From an uncultured Clostridia bacterium (GTDB taxonomy: Bacteria; Bacillota; Clostridia; TANB77; CAG-508), in NCBI GenBank assembly GCA_944392505.1, contig CALXWU010000002.1, positions 1 to 49,175 on the forward strand: a stretch of 49,175 bases of DNA, read 5' to 3'. Both the position numbers and the translations under genes were made by a program. Below the pieces are notes generated by a model. The model made no database searches, was not told the DNA's origin, and worked only from the letters and a program-made list of their open reading frames with translations. Below are positions 200-42,333 of the stretch, one piece after another (the stretch's first letter is position 1; each line of letters opens with the position of its first letter).

Positions 200-3100
200 A
201 TGCACAACTTACTTATAAAAAGATTAGAAGAATCAGAAAAATTTATTGAACTTATGAAGGAAATAAAAATGAAAAAAACCCCGATAAATATATCGGGGTT
301 AGTATTCGTGGGAAAATCTCATATGATTTCAACCATAAGTGAAAATGTTAAAAACCCATTATGTGTAATAACATATAATGAGATTCAGGCTAAAAATTTA
401 GTGAGAGATTTAAGATGCTTTACTGAAAATGTTGAATATTTCGGCAAAAGAGAAATCGCTTCATATGACTATATTTCAGAAAGCAAGGATTTGCCATATG
501 CGAGAATAGATGTTTTAAATAAAATATATAATAAAGAAGCAAAAATAGTTGTTACAACAGTTGAAGCTTTAATGCAGGGCATGATACCAAAAGATGTTTT
601 ATACAAAAATGTAATCACCTTTAGTGTAGGAAATCTGTTTGAAGGTACTGGATTTTCAGGAAAAAAGAATTTAAATAATTTGAAACAGTTGTTGCTTTTA
701 TTAGGATATGAAAGAAATGACATGGTGGAGAATAGAGGGCAATTCAGCATTAGAGGTGGAATAGTAGATATAGGGCTTAGTGAAAAGACTGGTGTTAGAA
801 TTGAATTCTGGGGTGATGAGGTAGATTCTATAAGATATTTTAGTATTGCCTCACAAAGAACAACTGAAATGACCGATAAAATAAGAATATTCCCAGCTCA
901 TGAATATGTATTAGAGTATGAGGTGGAAGACAATATATTACCAGAATATTCTAAAGTAGTTTTACCAGTAGTCAACAATATAAAAGAAAATTGTATACAA
1001 AATGTGAATAAATCAAATATAGAAGCAGATATTGAAGCAATACAAAATGGGGAATTTTTAAGCAAAATAGATAAATATTTTAATGAATTCTATTCTAAAA
1101 AAAGTAGTTTTTTAGAATATTTATCAAGTGATACTTTAATATGCGTGGATGAAAATTTAAAAATTAATCAAAGAATAGAAAACATATTAATAGAGAATAA
1201 TAATTTAATAAAATCCTTAGTAGAAAGATCTAGATTTATCCCAGAGGGAATTGCAAATGTAAGTGATTTTAATAGACAAGAATGGAATAATATATATGAA
1301 GATAAACCAACTATTTATTTAGAAGAAAATAATAGTAGCAATGTAAATAAATTTGAGTTTAATTATAGAGAAATAAACTTTTTCAAAAGCGAATTAGATT
1401 TACTTATAGACGACATAAAAAAATGGCAAAATGAGAAAAAAGAAATTGTAGTTTTAGCAGGAAATAAAGAAAATGCAGAAAGAATAAATAAGCTGTTTGA
1501 GGAGAAAAATATAAATGCAACTAGCAAGGTCTGTCCCCAAAACGACAACTTTGTCGCTTGGGGGACTGTCCCTAAAACGACAATTTTGGTTGGACCTACG
1601 ACGACAACTGGGTTTGAGTGTTATGATTTGAATTTGGTTGTTATTAATATGGCAGAGGCTTTTGAGGGAACGGCTAAAAAGAAGAAAACTAGTAGTACAT
1701 TTAAACAGGGAGAGAAAATTGTTTTTGCAGATTTAAAACCAGGCGATTTTGTGGTACATAGAACTCATGGTATAGGTGAATTTGTTGGAGTAAATACTAT
1801 AGAGGCAGATGGAGTTACAAAGGACTATATAAAAATTAAGTATAGAAATGATGATATGCTTTATGTTCCAACCAACAATTTAGACAATGTTAGAAAATAT
1901 ATTGGTGGAGGAGATACTGCTCCAAGGTTAAATAAGCTTGGAAGTAAAGAATGGAGTAACACAAAATCAAAGGTAAAGAATAATTTAAGAGAAGTTGCAA
2001 AAGATTTAATTGAACTATATGCTAAAAGGCAGAAAATTAAAGGATTTGCTTTTTCGAAAGATACTGATTGGCAAAACCAATTTGAAGAAGAGTTTCCATA
2101 TCAAGAAACTGATGATCAATTAAGATGTATAGAAGAAGTAAAAAAAGATATGGAACTTCCTAGACCTATGGATAGGCTATTATGTGGAGATGTTGGTTAT
2201 GGAAAAACAGAAGTGGCTATAAGGGCTGCATTTAAGGCTGTTATGGATCATAAACAAGTGGCATACTTAGTTCCAACCACCGTTTTAGCAAGTCAGCAAT
2301 ATGATAGTTTTAAAAAAAGAATGGAAAATTTTGCGATAAATGTGGAATTATTGAATAGATTTAGGACCCAAAAAGAGCAAAATGAAGTTGTAAAAAAGCT
2401 AAAGCTTGGAGAAACTGATGTTGTAATTGGTACACATAGATTACTTAGTGAAGATGTAGAATTTAAAGATTTAGGGCTTCTTATCATAGATGAAGAGCAT
2501 AGATTTGGAGTTAAGGATAAAGAAAAAATAAAAAAATTAAAAACCAGTGTAGATGTGCTAACAATGACAGCAACACCAATACCTAGAACTCTTCATATGT
2601 CTATCTTAGGAGTACGTGATATGTCTGTAATATATGAGCCACCACAAAATAGACGACCAGTTCAAACTTATGTGTTAGAATATGATACAGAAGTGGTAAA
2701 AGAGGCAATTACGAAAGAGTTAGAAAGAAACGGACAAGTATTTTATTTATACAATAACGTAGAAAATATCGCAAGGAAAGCCTTAGATATAGCTGAATTA
2801 GTTCCAGAGGCAAAAGTGGAATTTGCACATGGAAAAATGACAGGTAGAGAACTTGAAGACATCATGGAACGATTTGTAAATGGAGAAATTAATGTACTTG
2901 TTTGTACTACAATCTTGGAATCTGGAATTGATATACCAAATGCTAATACAATTATTGTAGAAAATGCAGACAGACTAGGCTTAGCACAGCTATATCAAAT
3001 AAGAGGAAGAGTAGGAAGAAGCGATAAGCAGGCATATGCATATATAACATATAAAAGGGATAAACTACTTTCTGAAGTTGCAGATAAAAGGTTAAAGGCA

Positions 3101-3769
3101 ATCCGTGAATTTACCGAATTTGGTTCAGGTTTTAAAATTGCAATGAGAGACTTGGAAATAAGAGGGGCAGGAAGCTTACTTGGAGAAATACAACATGGAC
3201 ATATGGAACAAGTTGGGTATGATACATATTGCAATTTATTAGACCAAGTTGTAAAAGAAATGCAAGGTATAGAAATAGAAGAAGAACCAGAAATTCAGAT
3301 AGATATAAATATCTCAAGTTATATACCAGATAGCTATATAGATAATAGTAGTCAAAAAATTGAGATATATCAAAATATTGCTTTATGTAGAACAGAAGAA
3401 GATATACAAAATGTAATAGATGAAATTATTGATAGATATGGAGTAATGCCAAAAGAATTGGAAAACTTAATAGAGGTAGCTAGAATAAAAGAATTATGTA
3501 GAGAAGCTGGGGTAATTAAAATATCTGAGAAGAAAAATATGCTTACTAATTCAAATAATATAGTTTTCTATTATGATAAAAATAAATATGATCCTGAAAT
3601 AGTTGATAGATTAATAAAGAAATATGGGAATGATGTAAAATTCTCAGCTGGAATAGAACCATATGTAACTTTAAAAATAGGCAATTTAAAGGATGAGAAG
3701 TTGGTAGAAAAAATAAAAGAATTTTTAGGTGAAGGAGAAAAAAATGCAAGTAATTTCAAGCAAGGATAA
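200..3769 (+). CDS. mfd: Transcription-repair coupling factor Mfd
   Basis: 1189 aa. CarD/TRCF RNAP-interacting domain (DFVVHRTHGIGEFVGV), SF2 helicase motifs (GDVGYGKTEVA, IIDEEHRFG, MTATPIPRT, RGRVGRS) and TRCF C-terminal domain. Carries an in-frame repeat copy at 1523-1589. Confidence 0.95.
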   Translation: MHNLLIKRLEESEKFIELMKEIKMKKTPINISGLVFVGKSHMISTISENVKNPLCVITYNEIQAKNLVRDLRCFTENVEYFGKREIASYDYISESKDLPYARIDVLNKIYNKEAKIVVTTVEALMQGMIPKDVLYKNVITFSVGNLFEGTGFSGKKNLNNLKQLLLLLGYERNDMVENRGQFSIRGGIVDIGLSEKTGVRIEFWGDEVDSIRYFSIASQRTTEMTDKIRIFPAHEYVLEYEVEDNILPEYSKVVLPVVNNIKENCIQNVNKSNIEADIEAIQNGEFLSKIDKYFNEFYSKKSSFLEYLSSDTLICVDENLKINQRIENILIENNNLIKSLVERSRFIPEGIANVSDFNRQEWNNIYEDKPTIYLEENNSSNVNKFEFNYREINFFKSELDLLIDDIKKWQNEKKEIVVLAGNKENAERINKLFEEKNINATSKVCPQNDNFVAWGTVPKTTILVGPTTTTGFECYDLNLVVINMAEAFEGTAKKKKTSSTFKQGEKIVFADLKPGDFVVHRTHGIGEFVGVNTIEADGVTKDYIKIKYRNDDMLYVPTNNLDNVRKYIGGGDTAPRLNKLGSKEWSNTKSKVKNNLREVAKDLIELYAKRQKIKGFAFSKDTDWQNQFEEEFPYQETDDQLRCIEEVKKDMELPRPMDRLLCGDVGYGKTEVAIRAAFKAVMDHKQVAYLVPTTVLASQQYDSFKKRMENFAINVELLNRFRTQKEQNEVVKKLKLGETDVVIGTHRLLSEDVEFKDLGLLIIDEEHRFGVKDKEKIKKLKTSVDVLTMTATPIPRTLHMSILGVRDMSVIYEPPQNRRPVQTYVLEYDTEVVKEAITKELERNGQVFYLYNNVENIARKALDIAELVPEAKVEFAHGKMTGRELEDIMERFVNGEINVLVCTTILESGIDIPNANTIIVENADRLGLAQLYQIRGRVGRSDKQAYAYITYKRDKLLSEVADKRLKAIREFTEFGSGFKIAMRDLEIRGAGSLLGEIQHGHMEQVGYDTYCNLLDQVVKEMQGIEIEEEPEIQIDINISSYIPDSYIDNSSQKIEIYQNIALCRTEEDIQNVIDEIIDRYGVMPKELENLIEVARIKELCREAGVIKISEKKNMLTNSNNIVFYYDKNKYDPEIVDRLIKKYGNDVKFSAGIEPYVTLKIGNLKDEKLVEKIKEFLGEGEKNASNFKQG
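1523..1589 (+). repeat. Three-arm repeat, type A copy 1, in frame inside mfd
   Basis: AGCAAGGTCTGTCCCCAAAACGACAACTTTGTCGCTTGGGGGACTGTCCCTAAAACGACAATTTTGG aligns along its length with the intergenic copies at 41040 and 48100. It is G+C-rich relative to the flanks and is translated as SKVCPQNDNFVAWGTVPKTTIL. Confidence 0.75.
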
Positions 3770-24169: not shown

Positions 24170-24171
24170 TT

Positions 24172-24230
24172 GGGACAGGTGTTTTTGTGACAAAAGTGGT
24201 AAAAAGGAACAGGTGCAAAAACGACAAATT
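24172..24230 (+). repeat. Repeat type B copy 1 (GGGACAGGTGTTTTTGTGACAAAAGTGGTAA plus a degenerate second unit)
   Basis: The first 31 nt are identical to 29850-29880. A second unit GGAACAGGTGCAAAAACGACAAA starts 34 nt later. Begins 2 nt after the alaS stop. Confidence 0.75.
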
Positions 24231-29849: not shown

Positions 29850-29912
29850 GGGACAGGTGTTTTTGTGACAAAAGTGGTAATTAAGGACAGGCGTAAAAGT
29901 GACAGAAGAGAC
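29850..29912 (+). repeat. Repeat type B copy 2
   Basis: GGGACAGGTGTTTTTGTGACAAAAGTGGTAA is identical to copy 1. A second unit AGGACAGGCGTAAAAGTGACAGAAG starts 34 nt later. Begins 2 nt after the dprA stop (coordinates +/-1). Confidence 0.75.
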
Positions 29913-39991: not shown

Positions 39992-40420
39992 CTACAAATA
40001 TTTTTTCAATTTCTCAATTGTATTTTCTTGGAATTGTATAAAATCATCTAAGATTTTTTGAGTTGTTTGATTTGCGTCAGGGTTCTGATTTTTTAATTTA
40101 ACCCCTTCAATTATTCCCATATTAGTTCCTTTTATCATCATTTCTGCAATATGAGAATTACTTTTATCAGCAATAGTGCTTATTTGAATATCCATATATC
40201 CCATGAATTTTTGCATAGGTGGAAGTTCGGCAGGAAGATCATTAAAATTTTGTAATTCAGTATTTACTCTATTCAAAATATCATTATATTGATTGTATTG
40301 ATAAATTAAATCATTTTTAAAATTATTATCTCCGACCTTTTCAGAAATGGTGGAAATAGAATCCATACCCATTTTTAATCCTTTGTTTACAGTATTTAAA
40401 ATATATTTCTCATTTCCCAT
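39992..40420 (-). CDS. Hypothetical helical protein (142 aa)
   Basis: ATG at 40420 with AAGGAA upstream. Predicted all-helical with a PAELPP linker. No family confidently recognised. Flanked by inverted repeats. Confidence 0.55.
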   Translation of the reverse strand: MGNEKYILNTVNKGLKMGMDSISTISEKVGDNNFKNDLIYQYNQYNDILNRVNTELQNFNDLPAELPPMQKFMGYMDIQISTIADKSNSHIAEMMIKGTNMGIIEGVKLKNQNPDANQTTQKILDDFIQFQENTIEKLKKYL

Positions 40421-40544
40421 CAAAATCACGTTCCTTATTTATATTTAGGTTTTATGGATTTACCTATAAACCAATTGTATTTATAAAATTATTTTACCCA
40501 CAATCAGAAAATTTATTACAATTACTTTTTATGTATGTCCATAT

Positions 40545-40581
40545 GTTTCAAATTTAAAACAAATTGTGTGTCACTTTGTTT
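40545..40581 (-). repeat. Right inverted repeat of the GGGACAC family
   Basis: The reverse complement AAACAAAGTGACACACAATTTGTTTTAAATTTGAAAC pairs with 39896-39932. Confidence 0.7.
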
Positions 40582-40592
40582 AAAAAATGAAA

Positions 40593-40603
40593 TTTGTCGA
40601 AAA
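40593..40603 (+). promoter_or_regulatory. Spo0A box TTTGTCGAAAA upstream of spoIIAA
   Basis: Perfect 0A core TGTCGAA about 90 nt upstream of spoIIAA. A sigma-H-like GGAAAAA...GAAT lies at about 40643-40664 with imperfect spacing. The spoIIA operon is Spo0A/sigma-H dependent in model species. Confidence 0.55.
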
Positions 40604-40688
40604 CTTTCTAAAATTCAACAAAACTTCTCATATTTTGCTATTGGAAAAAAATGTAAAAAAGAATATAATTAGAAAAAACTAAGGAGGG

Positions 40689-41012
40689 ATGTACTTGAAT
40701 ATCAATTTTATAAAACAGGACAAGCAATTAATTGTGGAAATTACTGAAGAAATAGACCACCATGTTGCAGAAAAGATAAGGAGGAAAGTAGATGATGAAA
40801 TTACAAGATATATGCCTAGAAAAACTATATTTGATTTCAGTAGGGTTACTTTTATGGATAGTGCAGGAATAGGAATGCTTATTGGAAGATATAAGATGAT
40901 GAGACTTATTGGAGGAAGTTTGGAGATTGTGAATGCAGGAAGTACCGTCAGTAGGATATTGGAAATGAGTGGAATAAATAAAATTATACCTATTGAAAAA
41001 ATGGCTATGTAG
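40689..41012 (+). CDS. spoIIAA: Anti-sigma-F factor antagonist SpoIIAA (STAS)
   Basis: STAS fold, DHH motif and phosphorylatable Ser context FMDSAGIG. First gene of the spoIIAA-AB-sigF triad. TTG at 40695 is an alternative start with better RBS spacing. Confidence 0.88.
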   Translation: MYLNINFIKQDKQLIVEITEEIDHHVAEKIRRKVDDEITRYMPRKTIFDFSRVTFMDSAGIGMLIGRYKMMRLIGGSLEIVNAGSTVSRILEMSGINKIIPIEKMAM

Positions 41013-41039
41013 AGTCAATTAAAAAGTGTCGCAGATAAT

Positions 41040-41098
41040 AGGTCTGTCCCCGAAACGACAAAGTTGTCGTTTTAGGGACTGGCTCCAAAGCGACAAAA
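41040..41098 (+). repeat. Three-arm repeat, type A copy 2, between spoIIAA and spoIIAB
   Basis: AGGTCTGTCCCCGAAACGACAAAGTTGTCGTTTTAGGGACTGGCTCCAAAGCGACAAAAGG. Its 3' end runs into the spoIIAB RBS AAGGAGG. Confidence 0.8.
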
Positions 41099-41112
41099 GG
41101 AGGATTTTTAAA

Positions 41113-41586
41113 ATGTATGATAATGAAATGAAATTAGAGTTTTTGAGCAAATCTAGCAATGAGGCTTTTGCTAGAATTACTATTGCTGCTTTTGCATCAC
41201 AACTTGATCCAACTATAGAGGAACTGGCAGATATTAAAACAGCTGTATCAGAAGCGGTAACCAATTGTATTATTCATGGCTATGAAGATGCGGAGGGGAT
41301 TATTAAAATTAAAGCGAGGTTAATAAAAAATACCATAGAAATAGAAATTTCGGATACTGGTAAAGGTATTGAAAATGTAGAGTTGGCACGTAAACCGTTA
41401 TATACAACTAAAGCAAATTTAGAAAGGTCTGGAATGGGCTTCACGATTATGGAAAGTTTTATGGATGATGTGGAAATTGATTCTGTATTTGGACTTGGAA
41501 CAAAAATAATAATGAAGAAAAAGATAAAAAAGCATTTGGTGGAGCTTAAAGAAGAAGAGTTTGCTGGATTAGGGGGAGTGGGCTAA
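41113..41586 (+). CDS. spoIIAB: Anti-sigma-F factor / Ser kinase SpoIIAB
   Basis: [34 protein letters not shown] aligns with the B. subtilis SpoIIAB N-terminus. HATPase motifs [24 protein letters not shown]. The track's 41026 start would translate the repeat. Confidence 0.9.
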
Positions 41587-42333
41587 TTGCTAGAACCTAG
41601 TTTATATGAAAATCAAGTGTCAGATATTATAGAAGCTCAAAACGGAGACAAATCTGCAATGGAAAAGTTAATAAATAACAACAATGGCTTAATCTGGAGT
41701 ATTGTAAAAAGGTTTATTGATAGAGGATATGAAACAGAGGATTTATATCAAATTGCAGTTATAGGTTTTATGAGAGCTATAAAAAAGTTTGATACTAGTT
41801 TTGAGGTAAAGCTTTCAACATATGCAGTACCATATATATTAGGTGATTTAAGAAGATATATGCAAACAGAAGGACCAATAAAAATAAGTAGATCAATTAA
41901 AGAGTTGTTATACAAGATATCGGAGCTAGAGAAAGAATATTTAAAAAAAGGAAAAGAGGCTAGTATAGAAGAAATCGCAAACGAGATAGGTGTAAGTAAA
42001 GAAGATATTGTAATGGCATTAGAAAGTAAAAAGCCGGTAAATTCAATTTATGAAAACGAGTCAGATGAAGAGGGCTTAAGTCTGATGGATAAAATTAGTA
42101 CCAATGTAGATGAACAGACTCTAATTGCAAACAAATTGACAATTTCAGAACTAATCGAGAATTTGGAAGAAAAAGAAAAACAAATTATACTTCTTAGATA
42201 TTTTAGAGGAAAAACTCAAACAGAGGTTGCTAAAGTTATGGGAGTTAATCAAGTACAAATTTCAAGAATAGAAAAAAGAGTTCTGGAATTGATGAAAAGA
42301 AAGCTTACAGACGATAGTGCTATTACAGCATAA
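41587..42333 (+). CDS. sigF: Sporulation sigma factor SigF
   Basis: Sigma-70 regions 2-4 (LIWSIVKRF, YAVPYILGDLRRY, TQTEVAKVMGVNQVQISRIEKR). TTG start directly after the spoIIAB stop. Confidence 0.9.
   Translation: MLEPSLYENQVSDIIEAQNGDKSAMEKLINNNNGLIWSIVKRFIDRGYETEDLYQIAVIGFMRAIKKFDTSFEVKLSTYAVPYILGDLRRYMQTEGPIKISRSIKELLYKISELEKEYLKKGKEASIEEIANEIGVSKEDIVMALESKKPVNSIYENESDEEGLSLMDKISTNVDEQTLIANKLTISELIENLEEKEKQIILLRYFRGKTQTEVAKVMGVNQVQISRIEKRVLELMKRKLTDDSAITA

Follow-up and report, generated by a model that had tools for sequence, protein, structure and literature searches.

A dispersed hairpin repeat, probably belonging to a single-copy HUH-Y1 transposase of the RAYT/TIRYT type, separates spoIIAA from spoIIAB in an uncultured Clostridia bacterium

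The window analyzed here is a stretch of 49,175 nucleotides from an uncultured Clostridia bacterium; searches against NCBIfam assigned the names SpoIIAA, SpoIIAB, SigF-like, and SpoIID to genes within it. The forward strand carries spoIIAA encoding the anti-sigma-F antagonist (40689-41012; stop codon TAG at 41010-41012), which was identified by TIGR02886 with an E-value of 8.8e-31 and by the superfamily TIGR00377 above its cut-off. Downstream follows spoIIAB for the anti-sigma F factor (41113-41586; start codon ATG at 41113), scoring 207.9 bits with TIGR01925 at a cut-off of 135, and a gene for a sigF-like sigma factor (41587-42333) with a TTG start immediately 3' of the spoIIAB stop codon. 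The gene calls leave an intercistronic spacer of exactly 100 nt between spoIIAA and spoIIAB (41013-41112), the length given in the initial annotation of this DNA. An A-rich Shine-Dalgarno (SD) sequence of spoIIAB, AAAGGAGG, is located at 41096-41103, comprising AAGGAGG at 41097-41103 with the ATG 9 nt downstream. The reading frame of spoIIAB remains open in the 5' direction through the whole repeat element occupying the spacer, up to a GTG at 41026 (41026-41112, 29 additional codons); this GTG is probably unused as a start codon because no SD is located 5' of it. The C-terminus of SpoIIAA reads ..IEKMAM; the sister species has a longer tail, ..MEDKMEVG.

The element in the spacer consists of several arms on the forward strand. 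Arm 1 (41040-41061) is composed of AGG, a CTGTCCC box and the half-site AAACGACAA; the inverted arm 2 (41064-41079), composed of TTGTCGTTT and GGGAC, pairs with arm 1 or else with arm 3. The latter is a degenerate forward arm (41080-41095) and ends in GCGACA, which represents the sharply defined outer end of the element. An inverted copy of GCGACA (41090-41095), the left outer half-site TGTCGC, is found at 41027-41032 and provides the outer stem of the predicted fold. Positions 41027-41095 may thus be regarded as a single unit of 69 nt with inverted outer ends; the flanks left over would then amount to a 31-nt spacer with its own SD. The outer GCGACA end lies 1-3 nt 5' of the SD AAGGAGG, and the third arm as quoted in the initial annotation (41081-41100) does run directly into this SD. 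The same annotation described the spacer as almost entirely one repeat copy; a copy is indeed present, but it covers 57-69 of the 100 nt, so its extent was overstated. Contigs from three DNA sequencing runs of three studies (chicken gut, poultry dust) bridged the element with 0 differences, spanning 40841-41438, 40844-41137, and 40794-41427. An assembly artefact is therefore excluded, and the element is fixed in the species, including the chicken-gut samples of the three studies. Among the contigs from sequencing runs, no clean empty-site allele was found; low-identity 'joints' derived from related species present in the same samples. The one RNA sequencing run contained only a fragment from a relative.

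Folding of 41005-41125 predicted a structure of -34.5 kcal/mol (z = -4.57; 0 of 200 shuffled sequences reached a value as good). The whole unit (41024-41098) was predicted to form a self-contained nested hairpin of -32.5 kcal/mol, the hairpin of arms 1 and 2 accounting for -22.9 kcal/mol and the alternative hairpin of arms 2 and 3 for -13.4 kcal/mol. The main hairpin begins 27-29 nt 3' of the spoIIAA stop codon, and a weak outer stem of 6 bp begins at 14 nt. A stable structure involving the ribosome-binding region had been proposed for this spacer. Stability was evident, but pairing with the ribosome-binding site was not: the element folds on itself, and the spoIIAB SD is mostly open in the predicted ensemble with a mean unpaired probability of 0.77. 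Throughout the genome, SDs adjacent to repeats were as open as control SDs (median 0.51 vs 0.53, p = 0.72). Occlusion of the ribosome-binding site by the element was ruled out by these two results. A scan of 40400-41400 revealed neither a sigma-70-like promoter nor an intrinsic-terminator-like site within the element. Rfam at the gathering threshold returned two tRNAs from the window and left the element unmatched; a search by E-value of 40900-41200 yielded a noise match only (20 bits vs a gathering score of 94).

The element belongs to a repeat family with three members in the window, at 1527-1583, 41040-41096, and 48105-48161, all on the forward strand; the 34-nt hairpin core gave 2 matches within the window vs 0 in 100 shuffles. 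The copy at 1527-1583 has three arms and lies in frame inside the mfd open reading frame (200-3769), to which it adds about 19 residues. The CGACA end of the copy at 48105-48161 is flush with the SD-like sequence AAGGAGC preceding dnaE (ATG at 48175; NCBIfam DNA polymerase III alpha, E = 7e-156). Additionally, related repeats of another layout were observed at 24170-24227 and 29850-29904. They consist of a GGGACAGG box, a TGTGACAAAAGTGG segment and a second box ending in ..CGACA or ..TGACA, each begins a few bases 3' of a stop codon, and they may constitute a second sub-family.

The draft genome of 1.2 Mb (77 contigs, 29% GC, 78% complete) was searched with the arm motif. It matched 64 times as compared to 5 times in shuffled sequence, which bears out the earlier description of the element as a copy of a dispersed repeat, and the hits group into about 40 multi-arm elements. 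The consensus of the arm is AGG-CTGTCCC-N-AAACGACA; only the full arm is enriched, the bare 9-mer AAACGACAA occurring 17 times vs 13.7 times expected. Neither a GTAG nor a CGTC tag is contained in the arm consensus, and the family is therefore not a canonical GTAG REP. Half of the copies follow a stop codon or lie within a gene, and both orientations occur. The outer ends TGTCG ... CGACA are inverted; nevertheless, no consistent target-site duplication was detected in the approximately 40 copies, and a MITE with target-site duplication was rejected on this ground. Likewise, in about 65 copies of two species, the sequence next to the CGACA end revealed neither a shared target nor a duplication of it. 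Of 38 genomes of the genus, 19 contained the arm pattern; the same search with the pattern reversed, as a control, gave a single match (G012). A two-arm DNA pattern run against 185,579 species genomes identified a few uncultured Clostridia/Clostridium MAGs and three stray matches.

The positions of the outer ends relative to genes were then compared. An SD with start codon (open reading frame of at least 60 codons) follows within 0-4 nt at 15 of the 42 terminal CGACA ends, and the stop codon of a convergent open reading frame is found within 0-2 nt at another 12. Random non-coding positions gave rates of 0.85% and 0.81%, respectively. The other 15 ends include near misses, namely three variant arms with a TGA inside the element, two ends with an additional partial arm before the boundary, and the one in frame within mfd. 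In a second species, 9-11 elements of a sample of 23 were flush with an SD. Flush contact with an SD or a stop codon is a property of the whole family and not special to spoIIAB. No comparable precision was seen at the inner (AGG) end; the CGACA end thus behaves as a terminus set by an enzyme would. At three genes of the present species (genome G000) the stop codon abuts a repeat. The C-termini of the encoded proteins are conserved among species, and in most of five other species, including the sister species G008, species-specific repeats begin 0-4 nt 3' of the native stop codon of these genes. Three processes could account for the flush position: the choice of target, selection acting in very compact intergenic regions, and long-term trimming by deletion during which the repeat is renewed in place. 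We found no description in the literature of REPs lying flush with ribosome-binding sites. At another locus of the present genome (L144:1590-1810, G000:C36:7395-7606), an inverted doublet fills an entire intergenic gap, its outer ends lying flush with the upstream gene's stop codon on one side and with the downstream gene's SD on the other; the flanks of the transposase gene described below have the same geometry.

The draft genome contains exactly one Y1_Tnp gene, an open reading frame of 272 amino acids at G000:C14:1868-2683. The protein matched Pfam PF01797 (Y1_Tnp) with an E-value of 8.5e-14 and NCBIfam REP_Tyr_transpos with an E-value of 9.3e-17 and 61.3 bits, below the cut-off of 80 bits. 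The HUH motif (H62-V-H64) and the tyrosine Y121 within RYIHxNP are invariant across 16 homologues from the genus. An AlphaFold model (pLDDT 82) contains a helical C-terminal helix-turn-helix (HTH)-like domain at residues ~197-269, which is conserved in the 16 homologues; matches to the HTH profiles Sigma70_r4, HTH_23, and Mor were weak (E = 0.004-0.008) and below the Pfam cut-offs. The top Foldseek match of the model was 4ER8_A (E = 8.9e-7), that is, E. coli TnpA-REP bound to a REP hairpin, and the next matches were TnpA structures of IS608, ISDra2, and IS200. Searching the PDB with the single protein by phmmer returned no Y1 or transposase structure and one chance-level match (E = 0.9), and a profile of the 16 sequences returned nothing from the PDB. 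To our knowledge, neither transposition nor cleavage has been demonstrated for the class of enzymes to which the Y1 gene belongs. Homologues of the protein were detected in 52 of 151 sampled genomes of the order, distributed over 14 of 28 genera.

Inverted copies of the repeat flank the Y1 gene at C14:1589-1642 (reverse) and C14:2689-2742 (forward), and in at least 10 other species the gene is likewise flanked by inverted arms specific for the respective species. The paired hairpin halves co-vary between species (CGACA/TGTCG, TTCCAC/GTGGAA, CCGACA/TGTCGG, GTGCCA/TGGCAC, GTGACA/TGTCAC). All 18 of 18 loci show the same order: a GH15-like gene, inverted arm(s), a conserved promoter region, Y1, forward arm(s), an SD, and radA. 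A single syntenic and vertically inherited Y1 gene stands against about 40 elements. The sequence GGGGACAG in the upstream flank of the gene, with its complement in the downstream flank, fits the motif GGGG[AT][CG]A[CG]. The locus is a REPtron arrangement in that it combines a HUH-Y1 homologue, inverted flanking copies, and one gene with many repeats; it departs from a REPtron by the missing GTAG tag and by its REP_Tyr_transpos score below the cut-off. More precisely, it is a TIRtron/TIRYT variant, because the GTAG tag is absent, the protein has an HTH tail and GGGGACAG fits the published motif; the C-terminal HTH-type extension, the flanking motif and the dispersed family are all found here. 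Hence, we consider it probable (about 80%) that the repeat in the spoIIA operon is a member of the REP/TIR family of a single-copy HUH-Y1 transposase of the RAYT/TIRYT type.

Two further observations were made upstream of the Y1 gene. A conserved palindrome of the type TATAGCATAT ... ATGCTATA lies about 100 nt 5' of it (L031:1325-1375, G000 contig C14) and recurs in almost every species of the genus; a role as promoter or operator, perhaps for the HTH domain of the protein itself, is conceivable. Furthermore, the inverted arm reaches into the GH15-like gene in most species of the genus: it supplies the stop codon together with the two or three codons before it, giving protein ends such as ..FILSL*, ..FILEN*, and ..FILGI* (L031:1160-1195 and the orthologous loci L033-L049), the arm variant of each species having an in-frame stop codon.

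The history of the spoIIAA-spoIIAB junction was followed in 30 genomes in which it could be located. In other families of the order the gap between the genes is -4 to +3 nt in 8 of 11 loci and 10, 33, and 147 nt in the rest; the species of the genus itself have gaps from -8 to 192 nt, including fillers without a repeat. The junction had been called normally tight, which is correct for the outgroups but not within the genus, where strict coupling is therefore weakly constrained. The sister species G008 (locus L002) has a gap of 5 nt; together with the tight junction of most relatives outside the genus, this agrees with the earlier claim of an insertion. The sister relation is based on one three-gene locus tree and a best-hit ranking: the tree of SpoIIAA, SpoIIAB, and SigF pairs G000 with G008 (SH-aLRT 95), and G008 is also the best match of three further genes. 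The locus tree contains sister pairs of contrasting gap length, 100 vs 5, 192 vs 24, and 158 vs -8 nt. A homologous SpoIIAA tail, ..ME[DN]KMEVG, the coding sequence of which contains a weak spoIIAB SD, is common to G008 and to the less closely related G018 (L005), and G000 has kept only the start of a tail of this type (..IEKMAM) before diverging. Hence, the tight junction appears ancestral and the filled one derived, and, as judged from these sequence comparisons, the spoIIA copy is a lineage-specific derived insertion. Its boundaries are not nucleotide-exact, 22 nt to the left and 17 nt to the right having no counterpart in the sister.

In the other two sister pairs of contrasting gap length (L007 with L010, L003 with L004), filled and empty species share the SD and the sequence downstream of it, and in these species the element landed directly 5' of a native SD. 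A supply of the SD by the element was ruled out at these two pairs only; the SD region of G000 has no sister counterpart. In G007, an inverted doublet fills the whole gap, the left arm providing the last spoIIAA codons and TAG and the right arm abutting the SD. Altogether, among 19 species of the genus, at least 6 have repeat boxes in the junction spacer, and the junction was filled independently at least four times, that is, in at least three species besides the present one. In a related species, spoIIAB was matched in two frames (L026, G005:C28:8843-9314; residues 1-56 and 54-157), which represents a frameshift.

Among the known repeat systems, TIRYT/TIRtron (Di Nocera et al. 2013, PMC3733652), equated with TnpA-Y1 subclass 2.1 by Quentin et al. 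(2018, PMC6006769), resembles the present one in its RAYT-like HUH-Y1 protein with C-terminal HTH-type extension (here from the model and HTH profiles below cut-off), in a gene located between long inverted repeats without GTAG, with GGGGACAG fitting the repeat motif GGGG[AT][CG]A[CG] (GGGGWSAS; PMC3733652, PMC6006769), and in flanking repeats drawn from a moderately abundant dispersed family of singles, dimers, and clusters. It differs in that the host here is a low-GC (29%) lineage of uncultured chicken-gut Clostridia, that the family is comparatively rich with about 40 copies in 1.2 Mb, and that the outer end is flush with SDs or stop codons. Quentin et al. (2018, PMC6006769) found no REP-like repeats near subclass 2.1 genes, and Group 1 RAYTs have been mentioned in Clostridia, loosely tied to repeats (Bertels et al. 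2017, PMC5581495). With the E. coli REP/BIME system with its TnpA-REP (RayT; 4ER8) and the Pseudomonas REPIN-RAYT system (Bertels and Rainey 2011, PMC3116915; Bertels et al. 2017, PMC5581495), the family shares a single-copy, vertically inherited Y1 gene between inverted copies of its own hairpin repeat and extragenic repeats, often near gene ends, as singlets and inverted doublets; the E. coli enzyme itself (4ER8) is the structure that the protein matches best. Unlike in these systems, the GTAG tetranucleotide is absent, the unit consists of a forward, a reverse, and a forward arm and ends in half a hairpin, and the protein is longer, with an HTH tail and a REP_Tyr_transpos score of 61 vs 80 bits. 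GTAG REPs often supply TAG stop codons, and some REPs are located within replication or repair genes (Di Nocera et al., PMC3733652).

Other families resemble the element in single traits. According to PMC3184786, MIRU (Supply et al. 1997, cited therein) are small repeats in operon gaps that are transcribed in the polycistron and have ends overlapping gene boundaries, as here; MIRUs, however, carry small ORFs across stop and start codons as well as tetranucleotide direct repeats, whereas the present family has a dedicated Y1 gene, no coupling ORF and no target duplication. A MIRU-like coupling ORF is absent since the frame opened by GTG 41026 neither has an SD nor overlaps the spoIIAA stop codon. 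Neisseria REP2 (PMC3184786) is dispersed directly 5' of genes in association with the ribosome-binding site, but contains the promoter, the ribosome-binding site and the ATG; here, the SD is native where an empty sister allows comparison (L007/L010, L003/L004), and the element holds no promoter-like site. The palindromic copy in frame within the conserved gene mfd (1527-1583) recalls the Rickettsia palindromic elements, which, unlike the present family, are CGTC-tagged and have no known dedicated transposase (PMC3733652); the spoIIA copy, moreover, is intergenic.

How did the spacer arise, and does it act as a regulatory device? A dedicated cis-regulatory RNA of spoIIAB (riboswitch, attenuator, or sRNA target) would be in line with the stable and significant fold and its two mutually exclusive hairpins, but is hardly credible for a sequence with about 40 dispersed copies in both orientations next to unrelated neighbours, one of them inside mfd, with no Rfam match or terminator in the element and the SD open in the predicted ensemble. 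A long ancestral spacer that was lost in the relatives, with no insertion in the present lineage, could explain why at least 6 of 19 species of the genus have related elements at the junction and why repeat positions are often common to several species. It was judged very unlikely from the gaps of -4 to +3 nt in relatives outside the genus, from the SpoIIAA tail and tight junction shared by L002 and the more distant L005, and from the SD contexts of the filled species, which differ from one another and match those of their own empty sisters (L007, L010). About equally improbable is the proposal that the arms are operators, bound as double-stranded DNA by the C-terminal HTH of the Y1-derived protein, with the repeats forming a regulon that includes spoIIAB. 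The conserved HTH-like domain, the single-copy, syntenic and vertically inherited gene and the location of arms at gene starts suit such a function; however, the HUH and tyrosine catalytic residues are invariant, no HTH profile match reached its Pfam cut-off, half of the copies follow a stop codon or lie within a gene irrespective of orientation, and no common function was seen among the genes adjoining copies.

The insertion might instead be an adaptive tuner of sigma-F activation, with a changed SpoIIAA:SpoIIAB ratio kept by selection; coupling could be broken, ribosomes terminating on spoIIAA could be stalled, or a processing or stability boundary could be created. In E. coli, translation of a gene is lowered by a REP less than 16 nt downstream of its stop codon (Liang et al. 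2015, as summarized in PMC12306157). The predicted structure falls within this limit with its base, 14 nt 3' of the spoIIAA stop codon; however, only the weak 6-bp outer stem begins at less than 16 nt, the main hairpin following at 27-29 nt. The contrast between the weak SD inside spoIIAA with its 5-nt gap in the sister and the strong SD here, the independent filling of the junction in at least four species and the fixation in the samples of three studies would also be expected of a tuner. On the other hand, SD accessibility is unchanged, gap length varies in the genus from -8 to 192 nt including fillers without a repeat, and gene boundaries are likewise occupied repeatedly at three unrelated genes and at mfd, which therefore points to general hot spots rather than to a spoIIA-specific process. 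Adaptive tuning is thus regarded as unlikely. We rather regard the spoIIA copy, in the main, as a selfish or domesticated repeat that is tolerated at a permissive hot spot, because unrelated genes are occupied recurrently and the length of the junction varies freely within the genus; a shift of the ratio, if there is one, would be a side effect.

For such a tolerated repeat the following course of events may be envisaged. The Y1 enzyme would place or maintain the element as single-stranded DNA and would set its outer end immediately after CGACA; copies would then persist where this end adjoins a gene boundary, either 5' of an SD or after a stop codon. In the sister species, the weak SD in the spoIIAA tail and the start codon 5 nt after the stop codon suggest coupling by termination and reinitiation. 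In the present species, spoIIAB is most likely translated by independent initiation at the strong SD AAAGGAGG, because the element is predicted to fold on itself and to leave the SD open. Translational coupling has likely been lost, since spoIIAB lies 100 nt from the spoIIAA stop codon and has its own strong SD; a tuning of the SpoIIAA:SpoIIAB ratio by this loss is possible. REPs are able to stabilize upstream mRNA segments (PMC3184786), and by analogy an effect of the element on upstream translation or mRNA stability is conceivable.

A more speculative view, which we regard as doubtful, is that the repeats serve as 'punctuation' of operons, the outer end being held flush with SDs and stop codons at orthologous boundaries and the sequence turning over together with the Y1 enzyme by in-place replacement or conversion of old copies. 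In that case, the hairpins would mark boundaries of mRNA processing or stability, might shield the upstream cistron at its 3' end and the downstream cistron at its 5' end, and would thereby set the relative expression of neighbouring cistrons, spoIIAA and spoIIAB among them.

The insertion is otherwise ordinary; it belongs to a REP/TIR family in a host group and with an enzyme subclass for which such repeats are poorly documented in the literature. The family ties a well-populated repeat family to a Y1 gene of TIRYT/subclass 2.1, a class for which the literature reports few repeats or none, and its flush CGACA end leads to a prediction on the cut site of the enzyme, after CGACA, and on its choice of target. 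In this lineage, the tight spoIIAA-spoIIAB junction of the model organisms is dispensable, a mobile repeat having opened it more than once. With these species, nature thus offers 'uncoupled' variants in which one could examine how far the stoichiometry of anti-sigma factor and antagonist depends on translational coupling.
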